Below, piece by piece: positions 21,069 to 35,587 of a DNA stretch of 64,000 nt (the stretch's first letter is position 1; each line of letters begins with the position of its first letter). The translations under genes were made by a program, and so were the position numbers. Source of the DNA: Escherichia coli (GTDB lineage Bacteria > Pseudomonadota > Gammaproteobacteria > Enterobacterales > Enterobacteriaceae); assembly GCF_044324875.1 (NCBI RefSeq), contig NZ_CP172185.1, one strand, 5' to 3'. The notes under the pieces were generated by a model. The model saw only the letters and a list, made by a program, of their open reading frames with translations. It searched no databases and had not been told where the DNA came from.

Positions 21069-22568
21069 ATGCTAAATTTATTTGTTGGCCTTGATATATA
21101 CACGGGGCTTTTGTTATTACTTGCTCTGGCATTTGTGTTGTTCTACGAAGCAATCAATGGTTTTCATGATACGGCGAATGCGGTGGCAACCGTTATTTAT
21201 ACTCGTGCCATGCAACCACAACTTGCTGTGGTGATGGCGGCATTTTTTAACTTTTTTGGCGTATTGCTAGGCGGACTTAGCGTTGCCTATGCCATTGTCC
21301 ATATGTTGCCAACCGATTTGTTGCTGAATATGGGGTCAACTCACGGCCTGGCGATGGTCTTTTCCATGCTGCTGGCGGCGATTATCTGGAACCTGGGAAC
21401 GTGGTTCTTTGGTTTACCGGCCTCCAGTTCGCATACCTTGATTGGTGCGATTATCGGCATCGGTTTAACCAACGCGCTGTTAACCGGCTCATCGGTGATG
21501 GATGCGTTAAACCTGCGTGAAGTGACCAAAATTTTCTCCTCGCTGATTGTTTCCCCTATCGTCGGCCTGGTCATTGCGGGAGGTCTGATATTCCTGCTGC
21601 GCCGCTACTGGAGCGGGACGAAAAAGCGTGACCGTATTCACCGCATTCCGGAAGATCGCAAAAAGAAAAAAGGCAAACGTAAGCCACCATTCTGGACGCG
21701 TATTGCGCTGATTGTTTCCGCTGCGGGCGTGGCGTTTTCGCACGGCGCGAACGACGGGCAGAAAGGGATCGGCCTGGTGATGCTGGTACTGGTGGGGATT
21801 GCTCCTGCTGGTTTCGTCGTCAATATGAATGCGTCCGGCTATGAAATTACCCGTACCCGCGATGCCGTCACCAACTTTGAACACTATCTGCAACAGCATC
21901 CTGAACTGCCGCAGAAGTTAATTGCGATGGAACCTCCATTGCCTGCGGCATCGACTGATGGCACGCAAGTAACGGAGTTTCATTGTCATCCGGCAAATAC
22001 CTTTGATGCGATTGCGCGCGTTAAAACGATGTTGCCAGGTAATATGGAAAGCTACGAGCCGTTAAGCGTGAGTCAGCGCAGCCAGCTGCGCCGCATTATG
22101 CTGTGCATCTCTGATACCTCTGCGAAGCTGGCGAAACTGCCAGGCGTCAGTAAAGAAGATCAGAACCTGCTGAAAAAACTGCGCAGCGATATGTTAAGCA
22201 CCATTGAGTACGCTCCGGTGTGGATCATCATGGCGGTAGCACTGGCGCTCGGCATTGGTACCATGATTGGCTGGCGTCGTGTAGCGATGACCATCGGTGA
22301 GAAGATTGGTAAGCGCGGCATGACGTATGCGCAAGGGATGGCGGCGCAGATGACGGCGGCGGTATCTATCGGCCTTGCCAGTTATATTGGGATGCCTGTT
22401 TCCACAACACACGTCCTCTCGTCTGCGGTAGCAGGGACGATGGTGGTGGACGGCGGTGGGTTACAGCGTAAAACGGTAACCAGCATCCTGATGGCGTGGG
22501 TGTTTACTTTACCGGCGGCGATTTTTCTGTCTGGTGGGTTGTACTGGATAGCATTGCAGTTGATTTAA
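21069..22568 (+). CDS. pitB: low-affinity inorganic phosphate transporter (PiT family)
   Basis: 499-aa polytopic [51 protein letters not shown]... Confidence 0.9.
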
Positions 22569-22616: not shown

Positions 22617-23309
22617 CTAGTGATAACCACGCGCGGTCATAAAATCCGTAATCGCTTTTTCTGCATCAACCAGCACCTTTTCCAGTGGCTGATTGGCATC
22701 GATATCAACCAGTTGTGCACCACCAAAGGTTAACTGTGGCGTTATTGCAATCTTCCTCGCCAGCGATTCCCGTTTATGGTCGGGTTTACGCGCGCAGGCA
22801 ACTTCAAGGTCAACATTGAGTTTGATGACCAGATCAGGTTTATGGCTCGCCATCCAGTGAAACGCTTTACGTTCCTGGCTTGCCAGCCATGAGACAAACC
22901 GGCCGCCTTCAACGTTAGGCGGGAACACTGTACCATCGTAAGCGCCAGGAATTTGGTCCTGAGGATAACGGTCGGTTAGAACAATTAACCCGCGACGACG
23001 ACAGGCAAGCATATGACGAAAGCGCAGTAAGCGACGGGCGACAAACGCTGTAATTACCAGCGCCGGAACAGGGCCAGGCAATTTTTTTGCTGTTTTCACC
23101 TGATTTCGTTCAATTGTTTTATGTAAGGATTTTCCCATCAACGGTAATTTTGTCACTGCACGACCGACATTTCCGGCCTGTTTTCCTAAATGAACTCTTT
23201 CGGCTGCACCATATTTTTCGACAACGGTAATGAGATGTTCACACACCGTTGACTTGCCTGAACCATCGCTACCAATAACGGCAATTAATGGAGGTGTTAT
23301 TGACTGCAT
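22617..23309 (-). CDS. yghT: P-loop NTPase/kinase-like protein of unknown substrate
   Basis: 230-aa ORF; Walker [10 protein letters not shown]; shares DRYPQ and ARKPDH motifs with the two proteins below. Confidence 0.85.
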
Positions 23310-23482
23310 GAATATATCCTTTAATTTAAATATCCATTAAAAATATTTATTTGGTTAATATGTTTTTATGAAAGCGTAATTCAGGTCAATGTCACAATTA
23401 ACCATTGTCACAATAAGGTTGAACGGATATTCTGAGCACGGACCACGTAATATTCAATACATTATTTGCTGCCGGGTTTTTC

Positions 23483-24196
23483 GTGAATCAACGTAATATG
23501 TCAATAATTAATTCCACGCCAGTGCGTGTTATTGCCATTGTAGGATGTGATGGTTCAGGTAAATCGACCCTCACGGCAAGCCTGGTAAATGAACTGGCAG
23601 CAAGAATGCCAACAGAACACATTTATCTCGGGCAATCGTCCGGGCGAATTGGCGAATGGATTTCACAGCTCCCTGTTATTGGCGCACCTTTTGGGCGTTA
23701 TCTGCGAAGTAAAGCGGCACATGTGCACGAAAAGCCCTCAACACCGCCTGGCAATATTACTGCGCTGGTTATCTATCTGCTTTCCTGCTGGCGGGCGTAT
23801 AAGTTTCGCAAAATGTTGTGTAAAAGCCAGCAAGGCTATCTGCTCATCACCGACCGCTACCCGCAGGTTGAAGTGCCGGGTTTTCGCTTTGATGGCCCGC
23901 AATTGGCAAAAACCACGGGCGGTAACGGTTGGATAAAAATGTTAAGGCAGCGCGAGCTGAAGCTGTACCAATGGATGGCGTCTTATTTGCCCGTATTGTT
24001 GATTCGTCTTGGCATTGATGAACAAACGGCGTTTGCGCGTAAACCTGACCACCAACTGGCGGCGTTACAGGAAAAAATCGCCGTTACGCCGCAACTGACA
24101 TTCAATGGCGCAAAGATCCTTGAACTGGATGGTCGGCAACCAGCCGATGAAATTATGCAAGCGTCACTACGCGCAATTCACGCCGCGCTTTCCTGA
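23483..24196 (+). CDS. yghS: P-loop NTPase/kinase-like protein (paralogue of YghT/YghR)
   Basis: 237-aa ORF (GTG start as printed; alternative ATG 15 nt downstream at MSIINSTP); Walker A GCDGSGKST. Confidence 0.85.
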   Translation: MNQRNMSIINSTPVRVIAIVGCDGSGKSTLTASLVNELAARMPTEHIYLGQSSGRIGEWISQLPVIGAPFGRYLRSKAAHVHEKPSTPPGNITALVIYLLSCWRAYKFRKMLCKSQQGYLLITDRYPQVEVPGFRFDGPQLAKTTGGNGWIKMLRQRELKLYQWMASYLPVLLIRLGIDEQTAFARKPDHQLAALQEKIAVTPQLTFNGAKILELDGRQPADEIMQASLRAIHAALS

Positions 24197-24227
24197 TCAC
24201 CAAAATGGATAGGGGATGATTTAACGA

Positions 24228-24986
24228 ATGGATGCACTACAAACACAAACTGTTAATAGTACAACCGCGCCGCAGCCCAACTACATTCCGGGGCTGATTG
24301 CGGTGGTCGGGTGTGATGGCACCGGTAAATCCACGCTGACCACCGACCTGGTGAAATCGCTGCAACAACACTGGCAAACCGAGCGCCGCTATCTGGGGCT
24401 GCTCTCCGGCGAAGACGGCGACAAAATCAAACGATTGCCGTTGGTTGGCGTCTGGCTGGAACGGCGACTGGCGGCCAAATCCTCGAAAACCCAAAGCATG
24501 AAAACCAAATCTCCAGCGCTATGGGCGGCGGTGATTATGTACTGCTTCTCGCTGCGAAGAATGGCGAATCTACGCAAGGTTCAGCGACTGGCGCAAAGTG
24601 GCGTTCTGGTGGTCAGCGATCGCTTCCCGCAGGCTGAAATTTCGGGCTTTTATTATGACGGACCGGGGATCGGCGTCGAACGTGCGACCGGGAAAATCAG
24701 CATGTTTCTGGCGCAGCGCGAACGGCGTTTATACCAAAAAATGGCGCAATACCGTCCTGAATTAATCATTCGTTTGGGGATTGATATTGATACTGCCATC
24801 TCCCGCAAGCCTGACCATGACTATGCCGAGCTGCAGGACAAAATCGGCGTCATGTCGACGATTGGCTATAACGGCACAAAAATTCTTGAGATTGATTCCA
24901 GAGCGCCCTACAGCGAAGTGCTGGAACAGGCACAGAAGGCGGTTTCTCTGGTTGCCATCGTTTCTGACCGCCGAAGTTTAACTTAA
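24228..24986 (+). CDS. yghR: P-loop NTPase/kinase-like protein (paralogue of YghS/YghT)
   Basis: 252-aa ORF; Walker A GCDGTGKST, DRFPQ, SRKPDH. Confidence 0.85.
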   Translation: MDALQTQTVNSTTAPQPNYIPGLIAVVGCDGTGKSTLTTDLVKSLQQHWQTERRYLGLLSGEDGDKIKRLPLVGVWLERRLAAKSSKTQSMKTKSPALWAAVIMYCFSLRRMANLRKVQRLAQSGVLVVSDRFPQAEISGFYYDGPGIGVERATGKISMFLAQRERRLYQKMAQYRPELIIRLGIDIDTAISRKPDHDYAELQDKIGVMSTIGYNGTKILEIDSRAPYSEVLEQAQKAVSLVAIVSDRRSLT

Positions 24987-25031
24987 GGCTGGCGGGATAC
25001 TTTTTACTATCAACGATAAGGTCAGGCTGAA

Positions 25032-26381
25032 TTGGCGGGTTTTAACATCAAACATTGGTTTGCAGATGGCGCGTTTCGCACCATTATTCGCAATAGCGCC
25101 TGGTTAGGCTCCAGTAATGTCGTGAGCGCCTTGCTGGGTCTGTTGGCGCTCTCGTGTGCCGGTAAAGGGATGACGCCCGCCATGTTTGGCGTACTGGTGA
25201 TTGTGCAATCGTACGCCAAGTCGATCAGCGATTTTATTAAGTTTCAGACATGGCAGTTGGTGGTGCAGTACGGAACACCAGCATTAACCAACAATAATCC
25301 ACAGCAATTCCGCAATGTCGTCTCATTTTCCTTCTCGCTGGATATCGTCAGCGGCGCGGTGGCGATTGTCGGCGGCATTGCCTTACTCCCTTTTCTTTCC
25401 CATTCATTAGGTCTGGATGACCAAAGCTTTTGGCTGGCAGCGCTGTATTGCACGCTCATTCCTTCAATGGCTTCCTCCACGCCGACCGGCATTCTGCGTG
25501 CGGTAGATCGCTTCGACTTAATTGCTGTACAGCAGGCGACGAAACCTTTTCTGCGCGCAGCGGGGAGCGTCGTTGCCTGGTATTTTGACTTTGGTTTTGC
25601 GGGTTTTGTTATTGCCTGGTACGCCTCGAATCTTGTTGGCGGCACCATGTACTGGTGGTTTGCCGCACGTGAATTACGCCGCAGAAATATCCATAACGCG
25701 TTCAAATTGAATCTGTTTGAGTCTGCCCGACACATCAAAGGCGCGTGGAGTTTTGTCTGGTCAACCAACATTGCCCATTCCATCTGGTCGGCGCGTAATT
25801 CGTGCAGCACAGTGTTGGTGGGGATCGTGTTAGGACCCGCTGCCGCCGGGTTATTTAAAATCGCCATGACATTCTTCGACGCCGCCGGAACGCCAGCGGG
25901 TTTACTGGGCAAAAGTTTTTACCCAGAGGTGATGCGTTTAGATCCGCGTACCACCAGACCGTGGTTGTTAGGCGTGAAGTCAGGTTTACTGGCGGGCGGA
26001 ATCGGTATTCTGGTGGCGCTCGCGGTGTTGATCGTCGGCAAGCCGCTCATTTCGCTGGTGTTTGGCGTTAAGTATCTCGAAGCGTATGACCTGATTCAGG
26101 TGATGCTGGGCGCAATTGTGATCTCGATGCTGGGCTTCCCTCAGGAGTCATTGCTATTGATGGCGGGAAAACAGCGCGCTTTTCTCGTGGCGCAAACCAT
26201 CGCCTCAATCGGCTACATCGTATTGCTGTTCATGTTCTGTCATCTGTTTGGCGTGCTGGGGGCTGCATTTGCTTACTTCGGTGGGCAATGTCTGGATGTG
26301 GTGTTCTCGCTAATTCCGACCTTAAAGGCATTTTTTCAGCGCCATTCCTTGCTTTATAACTCAGCCGGAGAGAAATCCTGA
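25032..26381 (+). CDS. yghQ: Wzx/MurJ-like (MOP superfamily) polytopic membrane protein, putative lipid-linked substrate flippase
   Basis: Track ORF is 449 aa with a TTG start; first in-frame ATG about 46 codons in (MTPAMFGVLV). Longer than the 355-aa K-12 YghQ I remember. Start uncertain. Confidence 0.75.
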   Translation: MAGFNIKHWFADGAFRTIIRNSAWLGSSNVVSALLGLLALSCAGKGMTPAMFGVLVIVQSYAKSISDFIKFQTWQLVVQYGTPALTNNNPQQFRNVVSFSFSLDIVSGAVAIVGGIALLPFLSHSLGLDDQSFWLAALYCTLIPSMASSTPTGILRAVDRFDLIAVQQATKPFLRAAGSVVAWYFDFGFAGFVIAWYASNLVGGTMYWWFAARELRRRNIHNAFKLNLFESARHIKGAWSFVWSTNIAHSIWSARNSCSTVLVGIVLGPAAAGLFKIAMTFFDAAGTPAGLLGKSFYPEVMRLDPRTTRPWLLGVKSGLLAGGIGILVALAVLIVGKPLISLVFGVKYLEAYDLIQVMLGAIVISMLGFPQESLLLMAGKQRAFLVAQTIASIGYIVLLFMFCHLFGVLGAAFAYFGGQCLDVVFSLIPTLKAFFQRHSLLYNSAGEKS

Positions 26382-27217
26382 TGATGAGAAAATATTTCCC
26401 GCTTGAGGCGAGCGAGCGTCTATTTGTTGCGATTGAAGAAGATGATGTTGTTGATGCACAGGTCAGTTTGCCGCCGACTATCGCACTAAGTTGTACCACC
26501 GAAATCATCCATGATAATTACGCGTTATGCCTGCAATTCTGGCTCAATGGCGTCAATCGCCAGGAGTTACTGCGTTTAATATGCAAACAGGCCAAAGGCG
26601 ATGAGCTGACTGCTGATGAGCGCAAACAATTTAAATACATGCGAGCGCGCTACAAGCACCTGCGTTTTGCGCAACGGCTGTATTTAAAAAAGCATCAGGC
26701 CGGATTTTTATTCGGCAAAACGACCGTTTTTTTGGGGCGTTTTCAGGACGGCTTTCGTAACGGTAAGAAAAATATTGTGTCGTATTACGGCAACCTGTTA
26801 CGGGTTTATTTAAGCTCTCCGGTCTGGTCGTTGGTGAACTATTCATTACGCCATAGCCAGTTAGAAAGCGTAAGCGGTTTTATTGCCTATCGGCAAAAGC
26901 AAATGCATACCCTGAAAGAGATAATTGCCAAACCGCGACTAACTGGCAGGGAATTTCATGATGTGCGAAAAATCATCAGCCAGCAGGTTTCTTATTACGA
27001 CACCTTAAGATCGCTTGATCCTGAAAATAAAGAGGCGTTACTGATTTCCCGTTTTCTCGCCGCCATTAATGGTCTGATGGGGGATAAGCACGACGACATG
27101 GTGGCGGATGATATGGAAAACCGCCAGTCGTATGATGCACCGGTGGCGCTGGATAGCGATATTCGCCAGCGTTTAGAACTGCTGATTTCGCGTTTCCCAC
27201 TCTATCCGGAGCAATAA
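26381..27217 (+). CDS. hypothetical soluble protein, 278 aa, basic and predicted helical
   Basis: ATG overlaps yghQ stop (ATGA) with GGAGAGAAA Shine-Dalgarno; no family recognised. Confidence 0.6.
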   Translation: MMRKYFPLEASERLFVAIEEDDVVDAQVSLPPTIALSCTTEIIHDNYALCLQFWLNGVNRQELLRLICKQAKGDELTADERKQFKYMRARYKHLRFAQRLYLKKHQAGFLFGKTTVFLGRFQDGFRNGKKNIVSYYGNLLRVYLSSPVWSLVNYSLRHSQLESVSGFIAYRQKQMHTLKEIIAKPRLTGREFHDVRKIISQQVSYYDTLRSLDPENKEALLISRFLAAINGLMGDKHDDMVADDMENRQSYDAPVALDSDIRQRLELLISRFPLYPEQ

Positions 27218-27777
27218 TGCCATCTCGTTGGATTTTCGCTCTGATCATCGCACTCTTAGCGCCAGGCGCGGTGGCACACAATTTCGTCACTGGCAAAACG
27301 GTTACCCCTGTTTATATCCAGGAAGGCGGTGAGTTGCTTCTGAAAAGCGACGACGAAATTCACTACCAAAAGTGGAACAGCACACAGCTGGCGGGAAAAG
27401 TTCGCATTATTCAGTATATCGCCGGGCGTAAGTCGGCGAAGAAAAAGAACTCACTGTTAATTAAAGCGGTTGAAGCGGCAAACTTTCCGCAGGATCGTTT
27501 TCAGCCCACCACCATTGTGAACACCGATGATGCCATTTTTGGTACTGGCTATTTTGTCGTTGGCAAAATCGAAAAAAATAAACGCCGCTATCCGTGGGCG
27601 CAATTCGTTATTGACGGCAATGGACAGGGACGCGTTGCCTGGCGGTTGCCGGAGCAGAGTTCAACCATTCTGGTGCTGAATAAAGACGGGCAAATTCAGT
27701 GGGCAAAGGACGGCAGCCTGACGCCGGAAGAGGTAGATCATGTCATTGCGCTGGCGCAGAAACTGATCAATGAATAA
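27217..27777 (+). CDS. secreted/periplasmic protein, YtfJ-like, 186 aa
   Basis: N-terminal signal peptide MPSRWIFALIIALLAPGAVA; start overlaps previous stop (TAATG); resemblance to YtfJ is from memory. Confidence 0.55.
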   Translation: MPSRWIFALIIALLAPGAVAHNFVTGKTVTPVYIQEGGELLLKSDDEIHYQKWNSTQLAGKVRIIQYIAGRKSAKKKNSLLIKAVEAANFPQDRFQPTTIVNTDDAIFGTGYFVVGKIEKNKRRYPWAQFVIDGNGQGRVAWRLPEQSSTILVLNKDGQIQWAKDGSLTPEEVDHVIALAQKLINE

Positions 27778-27807
27778 AAAATTCAAAGGATTGAGGGCGT
27801 TAGCGAG

Positions 27808-28878
27808 ATGAAGCTGGTTGAACACTACATCATGCGTGGTACGCGCCGTCTGGTGTTGATTATCGTCGGTTTTCTGATCTTTATTTTCGCCAGCTACTCC
27901 GCACAGCGTTATCTGACCGAAGCGGCAAATGGGACATTAGCTCTTGATGTTGTGCTGGATATCGTTTTCTACAAAGTGCTGATTGCACTGGAGATGTTGT
28001 TACCTGTTGGACTGTATGTGTCAGTTGGCGTGACGCTAGGGCAGATGTATACCGATTCGGAAATTACCGCTATCTCTGCGGCGGGGGGCAGTCCGGGACG
28101 CTTGTACAAAGCCGTTCTTTATCTGGCGATACCGCTAAGTATTTTTGTCACCCTTCTGTCGATGTATGGTCGTCCGTGGGCTTATGCGCAGATTTATCAA
28201 CTGGAGCAACAGTCACAGTCGGAGCTGGATGTTCGCCAGTTGCGGGCAAAGAAATTTAACACTAACGATAACGGACGAATGATCCTTTCCCAGACGGTTG
28301 ATCAGGATAATAATCGCCTGACTGACGCGCTGATTTATACTTCTACTGCCAATCGAACCCGCATTTTCCGCGCCCGTTCGGTTGATGTGGTTGACCCATC
28401 TCCCGAGAAACCGACCGTTATGTTGCACAACGGGACAGCCTATCTTCTCGATCATCAGGGGCGTGACGACAACGAACAGATCTACCGTCATCTGCAATTA
28501 CATCTGAATCCGCTGGATCAAAGCCCTAACGTCAAACGCAAAGCGAAATCGGTCACGGAGCTGGCGCGCTCCGTCTTTCCAGCCGATCATGCCGAACTGC
28601 AATGGCGACAAAGCCGTGGCCTGACAGCATTGTTGATGGCGCTGCTGGCCATTTCATTAAGTCGGGTAAAACCGCGGCAAGGGCGATTTTCAACATTATT
28701 GCCACTGACGTTGCTGTTTATTGCCATTTTTTATGGCGGCGACGTCTGCCGTACGCTGGTGGCTAACGGCGCGATTCCCCTCATTCCTGGTTTGTGGTTA
28801 GTACCCGGACTCATGCTAATGGGCCTGCTGATGCTGGTCGCACGCGACTTCTCTTTGCTGCAGAAATTTTCCCGATGA
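27808..28878 (+). CDS. YjgP/YjgQ-family permease (LptF-like paralogue)
   Basis: 356-aa ORF with N-terminal TM cluster, long periplasmic middle region and C-terminal TM helices, the LptF/LptG architecture. Confidence 0.7.
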   Translation: MKLVEHYIMRGTRRLVLIIVGFLIFIFASYSAQRYLTEAANGTLALDVVLDIVFYKVLIALEMLLPVGLYVSVGVTLGQMYTDSEITAISAAGGSPGRLYKAVLYLAIPLSIFVTLLSMYGRPWAYAQIYQLEQQSQSELDVRQLRAKKFNTNDNGRMILSQTVDQDNNRLTDALIYTSTANRTRIFRARSVDVVDPSPEKPTVMLHNGTAYLLDHQGRDDNEQIYRHLQLHLNPLDQSPNVKRKAKSVTELARSVFPADHAELQWRQSRGLTALLMALLAISLSRVKPRQGRFSTLLPLTLLFIAIFYGGDVCRTLVANGAIPLIPGLWLVPGLMLMGLLMLVARDFSLLQKFSR

Positions 28879-29954
28879 ATGTTTTCAGTCGCTATTTAAT
28901 CCGTCATCTCTTTCTCGGTTTTGCCGCCGCCGCAGGGCTATTGCTGCCGCTTTTTACCACCTTCAACCTGATTAACGAACTGGATGATGTCAGCCCGGGT
29001 GGTTATCGCTGGACTCAGGCGGTGCTGGTGGTGCTGATGACCTTACCGCGCACACTGGTCGAACTTTCGCCGTTTATCGCATTATTGGGAGGGATTGTTG
29101 GCCTGGGGCAGTTATCGAAAAACAGTGAGCTTACCGCCATTCGCAGCACGGGGTTTTCTATCTTCCGTATTGCACTAGTGGCGCTGGTTGCCGGGATATT
29201 TTGGACTGTTTCGTTAGGCGCGATAGATGAGTGGGTGGCGTCGCCATTGCAGCAACAGGCGCTGCAAATCAAATCGACTGCCACCGCGTTGGGGGAGGAC
29301 GATGACATTACCGGCAATATGCTTTGGGCCAGGCGCGGTAATGAATTTGTGACGGTGAAATCGCTGAACGAGCAGGGCCAGCCTGTGGGCGTGGAGATAT
29401 TTCATTATCGCGACGATCTCTCGCTCGAATCCTACATTTTTGCACGCAGTGCCTCCATTGAAGACGACAAAACGTGGATCCTGCATGGTGTGAATCATAA
29501 AAAATGGTTGAATGGCAAAGAAACGCTGGAAACATCAGATAATCTTGCCTGGCAATCGGCCTTCACCAGTATGAATCTTGAAGAGTTATCGATGCCGGGA
29601 AATACTTTTTCTGTCCGTCAACTTAATCATTACATCCATTATTTGCAGGAAACTGGGCAACCCAGCAGCGAATACCGCCTTGCACTGTGGGAAAAACTGG
29701 GACAACCCATCCTGACCCTGGCGATGATTTTGCTGGCTGTGCCGTTTACCTTTAGTGCCCCGCGTTCGCCTGGGATGGGTAGCCGTCTCGCTGTAGGCGT
29801 CATCGTGGGCTTACTTACCTGGATCAGCTATCAAATCATGGTCAATCTGGGATTGCTATTTGCGTTGAACGCACCTGTTACCGCGCTCGGTTTACCGGTA
29901 GCGTTTGTGCTGGTGGCGTTGAGCCTGGTGTATTGGTATGACAGACAACATTAA
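28875..29954 (+). CDS. YjgP/YjgQ-family permease (LptG-like paralogue)
   Basis: Track ORF 28794..29954 is over-extended; start MNVFSRYLIRHLFLGF overlaps the upstream stop (ATGA), giving 359 aa with LptG-like topology. Confidence 0.7.
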   Translation: MNVFSRYLIRHLFLGFAAAAGLLLPLFTTFNLINELDDVSPGGYRWTQAVLVVLMTLPRTLVELSPFIALLGGIVGLGQLSKNSELTAIRSTGFSIFRIALVALVAGIFWTVSLGAIDEWVASPLQQQALQIKSTATALGEDDDITGNMLWARRGNEFVTVKSLNEQGQPVGVEIFHYRDDLSLESYIFARSASIEDDKTWILHGVNHKKWLNGKETLETSDNLAWQSAFTSMNLEELSMPGNTFSVRQLNHYIHYLQETGQPSSEYRLALWEKLGQPILTLAMILLAVPFTFSAPRSPGMGSRLAVGVIVGLLTWISYQIMVNLGLLFALNAPVTALGLPVAFVLVALSLVYWYDRQH

Positions 29955-29988
29955 ACCCGCCGTGGCGCAACACCACAGCGGGCTCACA

Positions 29989-31161
29989 TTACTGCTTCAG
30001 AGTAGCGAACGCTTGAATGATGGCATCAATTTGCTCACGACTGTGGGCAGCGTTTACGCTACAGCGCAGCAGCGTGATGCCTGCAGGCGCGGCAGGTGGC
30101 AGGATAAGATTCACATAAACGCCCAGCGAAATAAGCTCGCGCCAGATGCGTAAACCTTCCTCTTTCGAACCGATTATTACTGGCACTACCGGGCTAATAT
30201 GTGAACTTAACTCATAACCCAGTTTTTGCAGACCGTCATACAGATGGTTGGCATTATCCATCAGCTTTTGCCGCAACTCTGGTTGTGTAGCAATGGTTCT
30301 TAACGACGAGCGCACGGTCGCAATGCAGGACGGAGAAGGAGAGGCGGTAAAAATATACGGGCGGCTGCCGTAGCGCAGCACTTCCATCGCTTCCGAACCG
30401 ACAGCAAAACCGCCAATCGAGGCCAGACTTTTACTGAAAGTACCAACGATAATATCCACATCATCTTCAACGCCAACGGCTTCAGCCAGTCCGCGCCCCG
30501 TTGCGCCTAACACGCCAAACGAATGCGCTTCATCGACAATCAAATAACCACCGAGACGACGTTTGATATCAACAATTTCCGCCAGCGGCGCAACGTCACC
30601 GAGCATACTGTAGATGCCTTCAACGATGATAATCGCCTCTTTTGCCCGTTCACCGAGGCGAACCATGCGCCGTTCCAGATCTTTAGCATCGTTATGGCGG
30701 AAACGAATAATTTCCGCGCCACCGAGAGAACAGGCGTCATAAATACTGGCGTGGCTGTCGGCATCCAGTAACACCACGGCGTTATGGTCGGCAAGTGCGC
30801 TGATGACGCCTAAATTAGCGGTATAACCGGTTGAAAAAACGATAGCGGTAGGGCGATTAAAAAACTCGGCGATCTCTTTCTCTAACGCCAGATGCGGCGC
30901 ATAACTGCCGTTTGCCATACGAGAACCGGTGGTGCCGGTGCCTTGGGCCGCTAACGCTGCCTGACCTTCGGCGATGGCATCATGATTGAAGGTTAATCCG
31001 AGATAATTATTGGTCCCGGCCAGAATCACTTTTTTATTGCCGATCCGGCCTTCGGTGGCGGAATACACTTCATCAATACAGGTACCAAACGGCGTTAACC
31101 CGTTGTCACTAAATTGCAGTCGCTCGCCAGCAAGACGCGCATATTTATCGTATAGCCCCAT
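29989..31161 (-). CDS. PLP-dependent alpha-oxoamine synthase, serine-palmitoyltransferase-like
   Basis: 390 aa; motifs DEAHSFG and VGTFSKSLASIGGF (PLP lysine about residue 244, codon near 30430..30432). Confidence 0.8.
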   Translation of the reverse strand: MGLYDKYARLAGERLQFSDNGLTPFGTCIDEVYSATEGRIGNKKVILAGTNNYLGLTFNHDAIAEGQAALAAQGTGTTGSRMANGSYAPHLALEKEIAEFFNRPTAIVFSTGYTANLGVISALADHNAVVLLDADSHASIYDACSLGGAEIIRFRHNDAKDLERRMVRLGERAKEAIIIVEGIYSMLGDVAPLAEIVDIKRRLGGYLIVDEAHSFGVLGATGRGLAEAVGVEDDVDIIVGTFSKSLASIGGFAVGSEAMEVLRYGSRPYIFTASPSPSCIATVRSSLRTIATQPELRQKLMDNANHLYDGLQKLGYELSSHISPVVPVIIGSKEEGLRIWRELISLGVYVNLILPPAAPAGITLLRCSVNAAHSREQIDAIIQAFATLKQ

Positions 31162-31409
31162 TATTTATTCTCCAGCCATGGAAGTAGTGTTTCCATTAAT
31201 TGCGCAGGGGTTTTGACATCCAGCAGAATATTAATAGGAATGGAAATATCGAATCTGTCTTCCAGCATCATTAAGAGATCCATCACTTTGATCGACTCCA
31301 GGCCAAGATCGTTGACGAGATCGCTGTCGGGCTTAATTTCCACACCGTTTTCGACCAAATCCTGTAAACAGGAAAGGATGTAATCCATTACTATTTCACG
31401 ATTTACCAT
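31161..31409 (-). CDS. acyl carrier protein (dedicated, 82 aa)
   Basis: Small acidic protein with DLGLESIKVMDL (candidate phosphopantetheine serine); stop overlaps the downstream synthase start. Confidence 0.7.
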   Translation of the reverse strand: MVNREIVMDYILSCLQDLVENGVEIKPDSDLVNDLGLESIKVMDLLMMLEDRFDISIPINILLDVKTPAQLMETLLPWLENK

Positions 31410-31440: not shown

Positions 31441-32355
31441 TCAAAATAGCCCGTTGCGTAATGCGTGTTCCAGGCTAATCCCGGGAAACCAATTAATATC
31501 TTCAGAAATACGGTTATTACTTGCTGACCAGTCGGCGTGGGTTAATTCACGGATTTTCGAGCGGGTCAGCATAGGTTCTTTACCTGCCAGGCGACTCAAC
31601 GTGGTACTGATATCCGCAAGGCAGGTGAGTACCGACAGAGGAATACCAACCATTCGAACGGAACCACAACGGGCGTCGGCGGCAAGCTGTCTTACGCGTT
31701 GCCAGTCATAGCCGCCGGCGACGCCATCGCATAATTCATAGGTTTGCGTCTGTACAGTTTCGGCGCTTAACCACTGCCCCACGGCTTGCGCGAAATCGGT
31801 GACGTGCAGGAAAGAGAGCTGTGTATCTGGCGCACCAAGTCGTGGCAGTAGGCCGCGCAGCATCCAGTCAAACAGCGGTTTTAACTCTTTATCGCCGGGA
31901 CCATACACGGCTGTCGGGCGAAAAATGCCCAGCGTAATTTCGTCAGCCATTGCGGTCAGTCGTTGTTCGGCGACGTGTTTGGAATTTGCGTACCAGGAGA
32001 GTTCGGGATGGCGCGCCGCCAGCGAAGAGATAAACAGAAAACGTTGGCAAAAGCCGCTCTCTTTTGCCGCTTGCATCAGGCGCAGGCTGCCGTCAACGTT
32101 ACAGCGGGTAAAAATCTCTTCTTTGTGTCCGCGCACTTGTCCGGCGCAATGGACCACCGCGCTGGCTCCGGCAACCAGTTCGCTAAGCGAATGTGTATCT
32201 TCCAGCGAACCGCGCACCCAGATGAGATTATCATTGACGTGAGCGCGGGCAGTACGCGTCAATGCGCGAACGTGAAAGCCGCGGGCGAGCAGGTTATCGA
32301 TAATATATTTACCGATAAACCCGGTAGCGCCCGTCACCGCGACAGTTTGATTCAT
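31441..32355 (-). CDS. NAD(P)-dependent epimerase/dehydratase-family (extended SDR) oxidoreductase, putative keto-reductase
   Basis: 304 aa; Rossmann VTGATGFIGKYI, catalytic YANSK; start overlaps upstream ligase stop by 4 nt. Confidence 0.75.
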   Translation of the reverse strand: MNQTVAVTGATGFIGKYIIDNLLARGFHVRALTRTARAHVNDNLIWVRGSLEDTHSLSELVAGASAVVHCAGQVRGHKEEIFTRCNVDGSLRLMQAAKESGFCQRFLFISSLAARHPELSWYANSKHVAEQRLTAMADEITLGIFRPTAVYGPGDKELKPLFDWMLRGLLPRLGAPDTQLSFLHVTDFAQAVGQWLSAETVQTQTYELCDGVAGGYDWQRVRQLAADARCGSVRMVGIPLSVLTCLADISTTLSRLAGKEPMLTRSKIRELTHADWSASNNRISEDINWFPGISLEHALRNGLF

Positions 32356-34073
32356 GCCAGGGATTCCTGCACATGAAGGCTTGCAGCATAAGCCTTCTGA
32401 TAGCGTTTTTTCGCTTCCGCACGGGCAGGCTTGCCGGAGGACGTTCGGGGAATACTGTGGGGCGGCAACAGATCGATAGCCGCGGTCACGCCAAATTCGC
32501 TTTGGATCCGTGCTGCCAGCGCGTGGATAAGCTGCCCGCGACGTTCTTCATCGCTGATCCGACACTGGATCTGCAAAATGATTTTTTCCTGGGCGGTAAC
32601 AAAAGCAATCGCATCGCCAGAATGAATTTCCGGTTCCTGTTCCGCAATATATTCAATATCTTGCGGCCAGATATTGCGGCCACGAATAATAATCAGATCT
32701 TTAATGCGTCCGGTGACATACAGATAACCGTCCAGCAGATAACCGAGGTCGCCGGTGTCTAACCAGCCCGTCGCGGCAATCTCGTCTTGTGAAATCTGGT
32801 CGCCAAAGTAACCGCTCATCAGGCTAGGGCCGGAGATGCAAATATGGCCTACCACACGTTCCGCGACAGGTATACCTGCTTCATTGCGGATTTCAATGCC
32901 ATGTTCCGGCAACGCTTTACCGCAGTTGACGAAAGTCGATACGGCGCGTGTTTCAGCATCCGGCGCGACGGCTTTGCCCTGATATTCGAGGATGTCGCGA
33001 TCCACTTCGTTAACCACAACCCCGGAAGCTTCATCAGAGAAGCTGACAGCCAGCGCATTTTCTGCCAGTCCGTAGCACGGCATGAACGTTTTATCGTCAA
33101 AGTTAACCTGACGAAAACATTCAGCGAATTGATGGAGTTGTTCTGCGGAGATCGGTTCTGCGCCAATACCAGCGACGCGCCAGCAGGAAAGATCCAGTTC
33201 AGCGAGATCTTTTTCATTCACGCGGCGCTGGCACAATTCATAGCCAAACGGCGGCGCAACGGAAACGGTGCCGCGATTTTTACTGATCAATTTAAGCCAT
33301 TGCAGAGGACGCATGGCAAAATCCTGAGTGCGCAAATAATCTACTGAGAGCTGCGTGGCGACGGGGGTCAGGAGAAAGCCGACCAGTCCCATATCATGGT
33401 AGAAAGGCAGCCAGGAGACGCAGCGGTCGCCAGGGCGTAATTTAATGCCATCGTGGCTTATAGCACGTAGATTAGCCATCACTTCGCGATGGGTGATAAT
33501 GACGCCACGGGGAAAACGGGTGCTGCCGGAGGTGTACTGGAGGTAGGCGATATCGTTCGGAACTGGACGCTGGAGTGCAACATCGGCTTCCGGTAATGCC
33601 TTAAACCAGGCGTGGCTTAAAACATGTAATTCGGGTTTGTTATGCGTCGCGGCATTGACCAGCGGTAACCACTCATCACCAGTGATAATGGCTGCGGGCT
33701 GGCAACTTGCCAGTAAACCCTGCAGTTTGGCGCTCCAGGAATCCCGCTGACCGACGCCCATTGGAATCGCCAACGGGACGGCGACTAAGCCGGCATACTG
33801 GCAGGAAAAAAAAGCCTCTACGAACCCGCTACTGGTTTCGGCAATCAGCGCCACGCGATCGCCTTTTTTCAGGTTCAGCGATAACAACCGCTTCGCACCA
33901 GCTTCGGCACGCGCTTTTAACGTCTGATATTCCAGTTGATCTTCAAGTTGGCAACGTCTGTCATAAAAATTCATTCCGGCGCTACTCAGAGCGGCGTAGT
34001 CCAAAGCATCAACCAGCGTTGGAAAATCGGCATAGCGCATAGGTAGGGAATGCGTAAAGATTTTATTAGACAT
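32352..34073 (-). CDS. fatty acyl-AMP ligase / acyl-ACP synthetase-type adenylating enzyme
   Basis: Track ORF 32352..34100 (582 aa); AMP-binding motif YTSGSTRFPRGV. Start uncertain (candidates at 34100, 34073, 34040); 34073 ATG chosen. Confidence 0.75.
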   Translation of the reverse strand: MSNKIFTHSLPMRYADFPTLVDALDYAALSSAGMNFYDRRCQLEDQLEYQTLKARAEAGAKRLLSLNLKKGDRVALIAETSSGFVEAFFSCQYAGLVAVPLAIPMGVGQRDSWSAKLQGLLASCQPAAIITGDEWLPLVNAATHNKPELHVLSHAWFKALPEADVALQRPVPNDIAYLQYTSGSTRFPRGVIITHREVMANLRAISHDGIKLRPGDRCVSWLPFYHDMGLVGFLLTPVATQLSVDYLRTQDFAMRPLQWLKLISKNRGTVSVAPPFGYELCQRRVNEKDLAELDLSCWRVAGIGAEPISAEQLHQFAECFRQVNFDDKTFMPCYGLAENALAVSFSDEASGVVVNEVDRDILEYQGKAVAPDAETRAVSTFVNCGKALPEHGIEIRNEAGIPVAERVVGHICISGPSLMSGYFGDQISQDEIAATGWLDTGDLGYLLDGYLYVTGRIKDLIIIRGRNIWPQDIEYIAEQEPEIHSGDAIAFVTAQEKIILQIQCRISDEERRGQLIHALAARIQSEFGVTAAIDLLPPHSIPRTSSGKPARAEAKKRYQKAYAASLHVQESLA

Positions 34074-34444
34074 ATACACCACGAAAAAATTGGATATCAA
34101 AAATAAAATGACAATAATGCGGTGGATTATATAGGCATAAAAGATAAATGAGATAGTATTTTCATCAGTGTGAAAATGAACATTGATTTAAATAATGAGT
34201 TTGAGTTTTTTTGTTTTTATTGTGAATGATATTTAATTTATGAATGTATTAAGAAGAAGCCTTGTCCGGTCGCCTTAAATCGACAAAAGGCATTGTGGCG
34301 CTTCTGTGTAGTCTCTGACCTTATCGTAATCATTAATAAATACTATTTATTCGTCGTTTGTATTCATTGGGTTGATTATTAAGGTGCCGTTCGTTGCTGT
34401 TGCAACCTGTTTGTCACCGTTAATTATTTGTTACCCACAGAACT
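34074..34444. promoter_or_regulatory. AT-rich divergent control region between the ligase operon and yghO
   Basis: About 370 bp non-coding and strongly AT-rich, between divergently oriented starts. Confidence 0.45.
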
Positions 34445-35587
34445 ATGGAATGCGATCTGCTGATGATTAAAATTGAAAAAGTAATTAATAAAAATGACCT
34501 TAAGGCATTTATCGCTTTTCCGTCATCACTTTATCCCGACGATCCAAACTGGATACCCCCTTTATTCATTGAACGCAACGAGCATTTGTCTGCGAAAAAT
34601 CCGGGGACGGACCATATCATCTGGCAGGCGTGGGTGGCAAAAAAAGCAGGGCAGATAGTTGGGCGTATTACCGCGCAAATCGATACCTTGCACCGCGAGC
34701 GTTACGGCAAAGATACCGGTCATTTCGGCATGATTGACGCCATTGATGATCCGCAGGTTTTTGCCGCGTTGTTTGGCGCAGCGGAAGCGTGGTTGAAGTC
34801 ACAAGGTGCAAGTAAGATCAGCGGTCCTTTCAGCCTGAATATCAATCAGGAAAGCGGATTACTGATTGAAGGTTTCGATACACCACCCTGTGCGATGATG
34901 CCACACGGCAAACCGTGGTATGCCGCGCATATTGAACAATTGGGTTATCACAAAGGCATTGATTTACTGGCGTGGTGGATGCAGCGAACCGATCTCACTT
35001 TCTCTCCGGCCCTAAAAAAACTGATGGATCAGGTGCGCAAAAAAGTGACCATTCGCTGCATCAATCGCCAGCGGTTTGCCGAAGAGATGCAGATCCTGCG
35101 TGAGATTTTCAACTCTGGCTGGCAGCATAACTGGGGATTTGTGCCGTTTACCGAACATGAGTTCGCGACTATGGGCGATCAGCTTAAGTACCTGGTGCCG
35201 GACGATATGATCTACATCGCCGAGATTGATTCTGCACCCTGTGCGTTTATTGTCGGCTTACCGAACATCAACGAGGCGATTGCCGATCTGAACGGATCGC
35301 TCTTTCCCTTCGGCTGGGCAAAATTGCTGTGGCGTTTAAAAGTCAGCGGTGTGCGAACTGCGCGAGTACCGCTGATGGGCGTGCGGGACGAGTATCAGTT
35401 TAGCCGCATCGGCCCGGTGATTGCGCTGTTATTGATTGAAGCCTTACGCGATCCGTTTGCCCGCCGGAAGATCGATGCGCTGGAAATGTCATGGATCCTC
35501 GAAACCAATATAGGCATGAATAACATGCTGGAACGCATTGGGGCGGAGCCGTACAAGCGTTACCGATTGTATGAAAAGCAGATTTAA
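34445..35587 (+). CDS. yghO: YghO-family protein, predicted acyl-CoA N-acyltransferase-like fold (intact here)
   Basis: 380-aa ORF MECDLLMIKIEKVINKNDLKAFIAFPSS... adjacent to glcC as yghO is in K-12; fold assignment is from memory. Confidence 0.65.
   Translation: MECDLLMIKIEKVINKNDLKAFIAFPSSLYPDDPNWIPPLFIERNEHLSAKNPGTDHIIWQAWVAKKAGQIVGRITAQIDTLHRERYGKDTGHFGMIDAIDDPQVFAALFGAAEAWLKSQGASKISGPFSLNINQESGLLIEGFDTPPCAMMPHGKPWYAAHIEQLGYHKGIDLLAWWMQRTDLTFSPALKKLMDQVRKKVTIRCINRQRFAEEMQILREIFNSGWQHNWGFVPFTEHEFATMGDQLKYLVPDDMIYIAEIDSAPCAFIVGLPNINEAIADLNGSLFPFGWAKLLWRLKVSGVRTARVPLMGVRDEYQFSRIGPVIALLLIEALRDPFARRKIDALEMSWILETNIGMNNMLERIGAEPYKRYRLYEKQI

Follow-up and report, generated by a model that had tools for sequence, protein, structure and literature searches.

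Caulobacter makes a sphingolipid with an anionic head group that requires export, and its sphingolipid locus (CC_1152-CC_1168) encodes the CpgABC head-group enzymes, the flippase CC_1166 and LptF2/G2/C2. The LptF and LptG paralogues of this bacterium form a complex with LptB and are tied to sphingolipid export: cells tolerate their loss only in the absence of anionic sphingolipid synthesis, and LptF2 becomes necessary once the anionic sphingolipid is made (bioRxiv 10.64898/2026.04.12.717747). A sphingolipid locus has also been described in Escherichia coli B and UTI89, where Spt, AcpR and AasR are functional and the gene listed for the N-acyltransferase is yghO (PMC9386255). We analyzed this same sphingolipid locus of E. 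coli in a window of 64,000 nucleotides (contig NZ_CP172185.1), and focus here on two of its accessory genes, the open reading frames ORF278 and ORF186 (26381-27777, plus strand), which encode proteins of 278 and 186 amino acids and lie between the flippase gene yghQ and the permease genes lptF2 and lptG2. The literature searched on yghQ/R/S/T, YtfJ and enterobacterial sphingolipids offers gene lists only and discusses neither ORF278 nor ORF186.

The Caulobacter and E. coli loci have in common the ceramide genes, a MOP-type flippase and LptF/G paralogues. However, the published gene-by-gene description of the Caulobacter locus contains no gene resembling those for CHAD proteins, YtfJ or thymidylate (dTMP) kinases, and the RefSeq annotation of the E. 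coli locus contains no LptC paralogue and no cpgA/B/C-type or nucleotidyltransferase genes. Since the two loci differ in these genes (CHAD-, YtfJ- and dTMP-kinase-like genes on one side, cpgABC and LptC2 on the other), their head-group chemistry must differ.

A further comparison is offered by polyphosphate systems. A CHAD domain is built of two four-helix bundles and binds polyphosphate through conserved basic residues, across a basic pore (PMC6537752). In Sulfolobus, the polyphosphate kinase PPK3 is made of two dTMP-kinase-like paralogues, and the same operon encodes a CHAD protein, its content in Sulfolobus acidocaldarius being ppx, cPPK3, rPPK3 and the CHAD gene (PMC12995831). The E. coli locus shares with this operon two adjacent paralogues of the dTMP kinase superfamily and a CHAD-fold protein, ORF278, encoded two genes downstream of yghS/yghR, and this arrangement is conserved in 79 loci. 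Unlike the PPK3 operon, it lacks ppx and sixA, carries a MOP flippase and LptF/G paralogues, and all of its kinase paralogues keep their catalytic motifs. The likeness of the kinases and of ORF278 to the PPK3 system is one of architecture only.

A divergent CHAD fold in ORF278

Both reading frames of a preliminary description of the sequence are genuine genes. Purifying selection is strong in comparisons with other Escherichia species and Pseudocitrobacter (ratio of non-synonymous to synonymous substitution rates, dN/dS, 0.03-0.07 for ORF278 and 0.09-0.16 for ORF186), and homologues number 204 for ORF278 and more than 200 for ORF186. The first protein had been called basic and soluble, which agrees with its isoelectric point of 9.08 and its lack of any hydrophobic segment (maximum hydropathy over 19 residues, 0.82). 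It had also been said to belong to no recognizable family, and this holds for single-sequence searches only: these returned no relative in Pfam, NCBIfam or PDB sequences, and the window protein gave no match to Pfam CHAD (PF05235) at E <= 10. The remote homology search and structure prediction that had been suggested as checks led to a divergent CHAD fold.

The ORF278 family comprises 342 matches in a database clustered at 90% identity, or 204 representatives at 50% identity, most of them about 280 amino acids long. When compared with PDB sequences, the family profile recovers the 6qv5 chain (E=0.003) with both halves in register, and the conserved basic and histidine residues of ORF278 line up with the CHAD motifs of that protein. 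The N- and C-terminal halves of the family also align with each other, on F-[KH]-x-x-R...M-G-x-x-[QH]-D motifs (E=0.0046). These sequence signals agree with the structural result: ORF278 folds into two four-helix bundles related by pseudo-twofold symmetry, which is the CHAD arrangement, and each bundle bears an F-[KH]-x-x-R-x-x-x-K-x-x-R ... M-G-x-x-[QH]-D motif. In an alignment of 66 members, R88, D123, H193, R196 and D238 are invariant, and K92, R95, H105, Q122, K197, N230, H237 and Y251 are nearly so, with K92, R95, H105, K197 and H237 each conserved in at least 90% of sequences. Pfam CHAD reaches E<=0.1 in 16 of these 66 homologues and E<=0.001 in a single one (2.5e-5). A fused relative has a precomputed APH match together with a faint CHAD match, and one UniRef record already names an ORF278 homologue 'CHAD domain-containing protein', while a RAST-style name reads 'clustered with yghQ'.

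ORF278 is thus a strongly diverged stand-alone CHAD-fold protein of the cytoplasm, for which the fold suggests polyphosphate binding as a possibility. Its distance from described stand-alone CHAD proteins (PF05235; 6QV5 of Ricinus, 3E0S of Chlorobium and 6RN5, PptA of Streptomyces) is considerable: identity is only 8-17%, ORF278 stays below every Pfam threshold, and the first motif has Lys where the described proteins have His. Context differs as well, as CHAD proteins are encoded near ppk, ppx or CYTH genes, whereas ORF278 is found with a lipid flippase and sphingolipid genes. We hold the identification of ORF278, and that of ORF186 given below, with high confidence.

Longer members of the family show other architectures. 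In P0250, P0265 and P0251 (L088:8001-10931), a signal-like segment at the N terminus occurs together with an APH/choline-kinase-like domain (HGDLKPxNLFFD) and a tandem pair of ORF278-like domains; P0124 is a tandem duplicate; and P0188, P0236 and P0242 have signal- or transmembrane-like N-termini. Some family members may therefore act outside the cytoplasm. An NCBIfam search of eight long or fused relatives returned no match.

Kinases, flippase and ORF278 as a module

We scanned one genome per species with a profile of 14 closer ORF278 sequences and obtained 79 loci, in all of which open reading frames were called and then searched with the window proteins. The loci come from Enterobacterales, Xanthomonadales (Luteibacter, Rhodanobacter and Dyella), Carnimonas, Sphingomonadales, Acetobacteraceae and a few other Proteobacteria. 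The classical sphingolipid producers are among these groups, and spt itself is present in the loci of Xanthomonadales and Enterobacterales. A set of genes is constant across the 79 loci: two or three YghR/S/T-like kinases of the dTMP kinase superfamily, YghQ and, as the fourth constant member of the module, ORF278. This synteny supports the earlier suggestion that both genes serve the pathway of the surrounding operon.

Around the constant set, gene order varies. Serratia and Sodalis keep the order yghQ-ORF278-ytfJ within the same sphingolipid locus; Xanthomonadales show the string yghS-yghR-...-aasR-cerR-acpR-spt-yghQ-ORF278; in Sphingomonadales, kinases, flippase and ORF278 form a separate four-gene cluster; and in Acetobacteraceae and locus L082, ORF278 comes after a kinase and not after the flippase. 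Only in Enterobacterales does the 10-kb neighborhood of the module include YtfJ-like and LptF2/G2 genes, and where lptF2G2 has been relocated, the trio yghQ-ORF278-ytfJ2 stays together.

Enzymes of the dTMP kinase superfamily phosphorylate phosphate acceptors. Single-sequence searches with YghR and YghS against PDB were uninformative; a profile of 39 YghR/S/T-type sequences matches thymidylate kinase structures with E-values of about 1e-7 to 1e-8, and all three paralogue types keep an invariant P-loop and DR motif. We also considered whether YghR/S/T belong to the PPK3 clade and found no support for this (5h70 at E=0.0066, over the P-loop region only).

The stop codon TGA of yghQ and the ATG of ORF278 have an A in common (TCCTGATGATGAGA), as have the TAA of ORF278 and the ATG of ORF186 (GAGCAATAATGCC), and a Shine-Dalgarno sequence of GGAG type can be read ahead of both starts. 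The two overlaps of the preliminary description are thus present in the window, but only the first is a conserved feature. Among 68 loci from several orders, 51 show an overlap of the yghQ stop with the ORF278 start and 63 have the two within 10 nucleotides of each other, whereas across genera the ORF278/ORF186 junction overlaps in one locus out of 42, with a median gap of 37 nucleotides. This second overlap is allele-specific: the ORF278 of strain C4, like that of the larger protein clusters, has 274 amino acids and ends 11 nucleotides before the ATG of ORF186, while the window (26381-27217, compared with L001:11982-12806) carries a minority allele of 278 amino acids, in which the usual stop TAA has become TAT and four codons (YPEQ) are added.

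We may also hypothesize that ORF278 assists or regulates YghQ as a cytoplasmic subunit, be it a gate, a stabilizer or a dock for the kinases, which binds a protein or membrane surface rather than a phosphate chain and retains the CHAD-like fold only as an inherited scaffold. Its place immediately 3' of yghQ, the conserved overlap just described, the missing Pfam CHAD match of the window protein and the common use of helical bundles as protein-protein adaptors all speak for such a role. However, it is the basic and histidine residues of the two CHAD signature motifs that have not changed across four orders, ORF278 comes after a kinase rather than the flippase in Acetobacteraceae and L082, and the fused relatives carry a kinase domain, not a transporter. 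On balance we consider a subunit of YghQ unlikely, though worth keeping in mind.

Neighboring genes bear on the kind of substrate. At L005:6464-12259, a relative 27% identical to ORF278 lies among two YghT-like kinases, an LmtA-like methyltransferase, a MobA/CofC-like nucleotidyltransferase and a MOP flippase. The LmtA family, that of lipid A 1-phosphate O-methyltransferases, methylates the 1-phosphate of lipid A, and the L005 neighborhood points to modification of a lipid phosphate. Furthermore, 13 enterobacterial sphingolipid loci contain a DgkA paralogue (L003:19667-20026, and L014, L016, L025, L026, L033, L040-L043, L045, L046 and L049). This gene, absent from the E. coli locus, is located near yghO, mostly between yghO and a yghR-like gene, in Sodalis, Erwinia, Pantoea, Rosenbergiella and related genera, and could encode the ceramide kinase of these 13 loci. 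E. coli DgkA phosphorylates ceramide in vitro, which makes a ceramide-1-phosphate precursor plausible.

Two other neighbors were observed. In Xanthomonadales (L047, L050, L051 and L054), an open reading frame of 252 amino acids between yghR and aasR (at about 2.6-3.4 kb in L050) looks by eye like LpxO-type Asp/Asn beta-hydroxylases. In Sphingomonadales (L057-L073), a divergent OmpR-type response regulator (222 amino acids) and a histidine kinase (about 470 amino acids) flank the cluster in at least 10 loci, and this pair is a candidate regulator of the module there.

YtfJ2, a second YtfJ protein, predicted to be periplasmic

The absence of a recognizable family does not extend to ORF186. By its profile matches (TIGR01626, 213.1 bits for a cut-off of 151.1; PF09695, 1.1e-59 over residues 25-182), this is a protein of the YtfJ/HI0045 family and a second copy of YtfJ, to which we refer as YtfJ2. 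In a blastn search with its gene, the median E. coli genome has two matching sites, this locus and a copy about 66% identical in DNA, which in the one strain checked is ytfJ, beside ytfK, cysQ and cpdB. Housekeeping YtfJ, also a member of TIGR01626 and PF09695, has the same length as YtfJ2, is 55% identical to it and shares its signal peptide and conserved motifs; the difference lies in the setting, as only YtfJ2 is encoded inside the sphingolipid locus. The housekeeping protein has been described as periplasmic, and ytfJ is listed, together with lpxP, among promoters also recognized by sigma-E (PMC4447067).

The signal peptide noted in the preliminary description is indeed predicted at the N terminus of YtfJ2 (MPSRWIFALIIALLAPGAVA, followed by HNF), with cleavage between AVA and H. 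The first residue of the predicted mature protein, His21 (27277-27279), is invariant in 46 homologues and present in housekeeping YtfJ too. An AlphaFold (AF2) model, with a mean confidence score (pLDDT) of 85, resembles thioredoxin, peroxiredoxin, ResA and Sco folds in Foldseek (E about 1e-7). YtfJ2 contains no cysteine, and a conserved IAGR.SAK.KN loop stands where the CxxC motif would be. The longer segment GKVR..Q.IAGR.SAK.KN (residues 60-78), conserved in both YtfJ paralogues, looks like an anion- or metal-binding site.

These results divide the earlier idea that the two proteins might be periplasmic lipid-binding or chaperone components. ORF278, cytoplasmic and of CHAD fold, does not fit it; for YtfJ2, which fits by predicted location, such a role is conceivable. 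The beta-jellyroll of Lpt carriers (LptC and LptA, OstA fold) is seen neither in the YtfJ2 model nor in the all-helical ORF278, and an LptC-like role of YtfJ2 by homology was rejected on its alpha/beta thioredoxin-like fold.

YtfJ2 could nevertheless be a periplasmic lipid-handling partner of LptF2G2 that replaces the LptC2 of Caulobacter. Its predicted location is suitable, its gene is directly upstream of lptF2 in most Enterobacterales, housekeeping ytfJ shares sigma-E recognition with lpxP, and no LptC paralogue is annotated in the E. coli locus, whereas Caulobacter needs LptC2. Besides the fold, three observations argue against this: YtfJ2 remains with yghQ-ORF278 when lptF2G2 moves, no YtfJ2 lies within 10 kb in the other orders that possess the ORF278 module, and LptF2G2 could make use of housekeeping LptC, as the Caulobacter paralogues do of LptB. 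Such a partnership is improbable in our view. That YtfJ2 is instead a periplasmic metal-binding or redox-type protein akin to Sco/TlpA relatives, with no direct lipid role, seems very unlikely: the Foldseek matches include Sco, ResA and TlpA-like proteins and His21 is invariant, but the lack of any cysteine excludes thiol chemistry, and in 42 loci the position of YtfJ2 within the sphingolipid locus does not change.

Locus layout and a candidate head-group pathway

The features of the locus are listed in Table 1. On the plus strand, the order is yghS-yghR-yghQ-ORF278-ORF186-lptF2-lptG2, convergent with spt-acpR-cerR-aasR, and yghO lies beyond. In its best match, RefSeq shows the hyb operon, yghU, gss and pitB on the left, then yghT (minus strand); on the plus strand yghS, yghR, a 'lipopolysaccharide biosynthesis protein' (full-length YghQ), a hypothetical protein, a 'YtfJ family protein', lptF and lptG; and on the minus strand spt, an acyl carrier protein, an epimerase/dehydratase and a fatty acyl-AMP ligase, followed by yghO and glcC. 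The hairpin occupies the 34-nucleotide gap between lptG2 and spt, and no prominent terminator-like site was seen inside the yghS-lptG2 stretch. With a promoter-like match before yghS and the hairpin after lptG2, a single seven-gene operon from yghS to lptG2 is plausible.

Table 1. Features of the E. coli sphingolipid locus, in window coordinates
Feature	Position	Strand	Description
yghT	22617..23309	-	P-loop kinase of the dTMP kinase superfamily, divergent from the operon; weak NCBIfam dTMP kinase matches; RefSeq name yghT; kinase family A4, whose profile matches thymidylate kinase structures (E about 1e-7)
Sigma-70-like promoter match	23405..23433	+	upstream of yghS; consensus match only
yghS	23483..24196	+	dTMP-kinase-superfamily kinase; P-loop and DRY motifs intact
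yghR	24228..24986	+	second dTMP-kinase-superfamily kinase, paralogue of yghS
yghQ	25032..26381	+	full length, 449 amino acids; MOP/Wzx-type flippase; NCBIfam MOP flippase E=2.4e-8
ORF278	26381..27217	+	278 amino acids; cytoplasmic, basic, all-helical; divergent CHAD fold
ORF186 (YtfJ2)	27217..27777	+	186 amino acids; predicted periplasmic, YtfJ family, Cys-free thioredoxin-like fold; paralogue of housekeeping ytfJ
lptF2	27808..28878	+	LptF paralogue; TIGR04407 318 bits
lptG2	28875..29954	+	LptG paralogue; TIGR04408 304.5 bits; start overlaps lptF2 stop by 4 nucleotides
GC-rich hairpin, 16 bp	29952..29986		between convergent lptG2 and spt; probably a shared (bidirectional) terminator
spt	29989..31161	-	serine palmitoyltransferase; RefSeq; E. 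coli B enzyme tested in PMC9386255
acpR	31161..31409	-	specialized acyl carrier protein
cerR/epi	31441..32355	-	NAD-dependent reductase of ceramide synthesis
aasR	32352..34100	-	acyl-AcpR synthetase
yghO	34445..35587	+	N-acyltransferase, homologue of bacterial ceramide synthase

The position of the two genes between a flippase and two permeases, given in the preliminary description, is borne out. The upstream gene is MOP-flippase-like, and its orthologues carry Polysacc_synt and Polysacc_synt_3; the downstream genes exceed the NCBIfam equivalog cut-offs for LptF (318 against 230 bits) and LptG (304.5 against 240 bits). It is because of these scores that RefSeq calls them plain 'lptF' and 'lptG', the names of the essential lipopolysaccharide genes elsewhere in the genome, a labeling of locus paralogues that calls for caution. 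We also observed that pitB, a low-affinity phosphate transporter gene (21069-22568), adjoins yghT, which may be a coincidence or may be relevant to a phosphate-rich product.

Of the 5426 complete E. coli genomes, 4705 match the stretch 23400-30000 and 4092 contain 80% of it or more. About three quarters of the complete genomes therefore carry the operon, and about one quarter lack most of it.

From the gene reality, folds, family membership, localization signals, selection, synteny and coupling observed or computed above, we infer the ligands, partners and reaction steps of a possible pathway. ORF278 would be synthesized in step with YghQ through the conserved stop/start overlap. On the cytoplasmic side of the inner membrane, the kinases would add phosphate to an already phosphorylated ceramide, a substrate suggested by the preference of their superfamily for phosphate acceptors. 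Residues R88, K92, R95, H193, R196, K197 and H237 of ORF278 would then bind the pyro- or oligophosphate head group so formed, or else a polyphosphate donor, and the protein would pass the anionic lipid to YghQ; YghQ would flip it, and LptF2G2 would extract it for transfer to the outer membrane. YtfJ2, presumably a duplicate of sigma-E-regulated YtfJ recruited in Enterobacterales only, would act in the periplasm after flipping, probably touching the anionic head group through its GKVR..Q.IAGR.SAK.KN region. We propose the core of this scheme, in which the ligand of ORF278 is a phosphoanhydride head group or donor for the kinases and YghQ receives the lipid from it, only tentatively, as a possibility somewhat short of an even chance; any specific role of YtfJ2 is more doubtful still.

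Several observations weigh against the pathway. Some distant members of the ORF278 family have signal-peptide-like N-termini or stand alone without kinases, and the fold may thus serve other ligands. The kinase profile prefers canonical thymidylate kinases over the PPK3 homologue 2plr/5h70 (E=0.0066, P-loop region only), and no ppx, sixA or pst gene is present in the annotated locus. In E. coli SCU-115 (L087:665-1501), ORF278 has an internal stop at codon 222 and is a pseudogene in RefSeq, while the YtfJ2 gene is 100% identical to that of the window; together with the absence of the region from some genomes, this indicates that the locus is dispensable in some lineages. Since the module does without YtfJ2 in orders other than Enterobacterales, the core chemistry cannot depend on this protein. 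Finally, no description of the lipid product of the locus was found in the literature searched, so that the phosphoanhydride head group is a conjecture.

That ORF278 might be an ordinary polyphosphate-granule protein (phosin), with PPK3-type kinases serving general phosphate or energy storage and sphingolipid neighbors devoid of functional meaning, is highly improbable: its CHAD fold, the PPK3 operon with two dTMP-kinase-like genes and a CHAD gene, and pitB next to yghT would suit it, but a MOP lipid flippase is always in the module, the module lies within the spt operon of Xanthomonadales and next to that of Enterobacterales, the orders that contribute the 79 loci include known sphingolipid producers, and there are neither ppx or sixA neighbors nor a specific affinity of the kinases to the PPK3 structure.

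The locus and the folds were known already, and ORF186 is an ordinary family member. What is new is the constant kinase-flippase-CHAD module, that is, a CHAD-fold protein as constant partner of a flippase and of kinases of the phosphate-acceptor type, and the hint that it gives about the head group. Caulobacter papers of 2024-2026 call head-group acquisition and envelope crossing of bacterial sphingolipids open. At its most speculative, and with little probability in our judgment, the proposed pathway may be extended to many E. coli and other sphingolipid-making Proteobacteria building a ceramide with a pyro-, tri- or oligophosphate chain, made by PPK3-like YghS/R/T, measured or held by ORF278, flipped by YghQ and exported by LptF2G2; if true, polyphosphate would be anchored to the bacterial surface by a lipid of a class not described so far. 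The YtfJ family gains a first contextual lead, and two 'hypothetical' genes now give rise to a concrete biochemical hypothesis, that of a phosphoanhydride-bearing ceramide, with named candidate residues.

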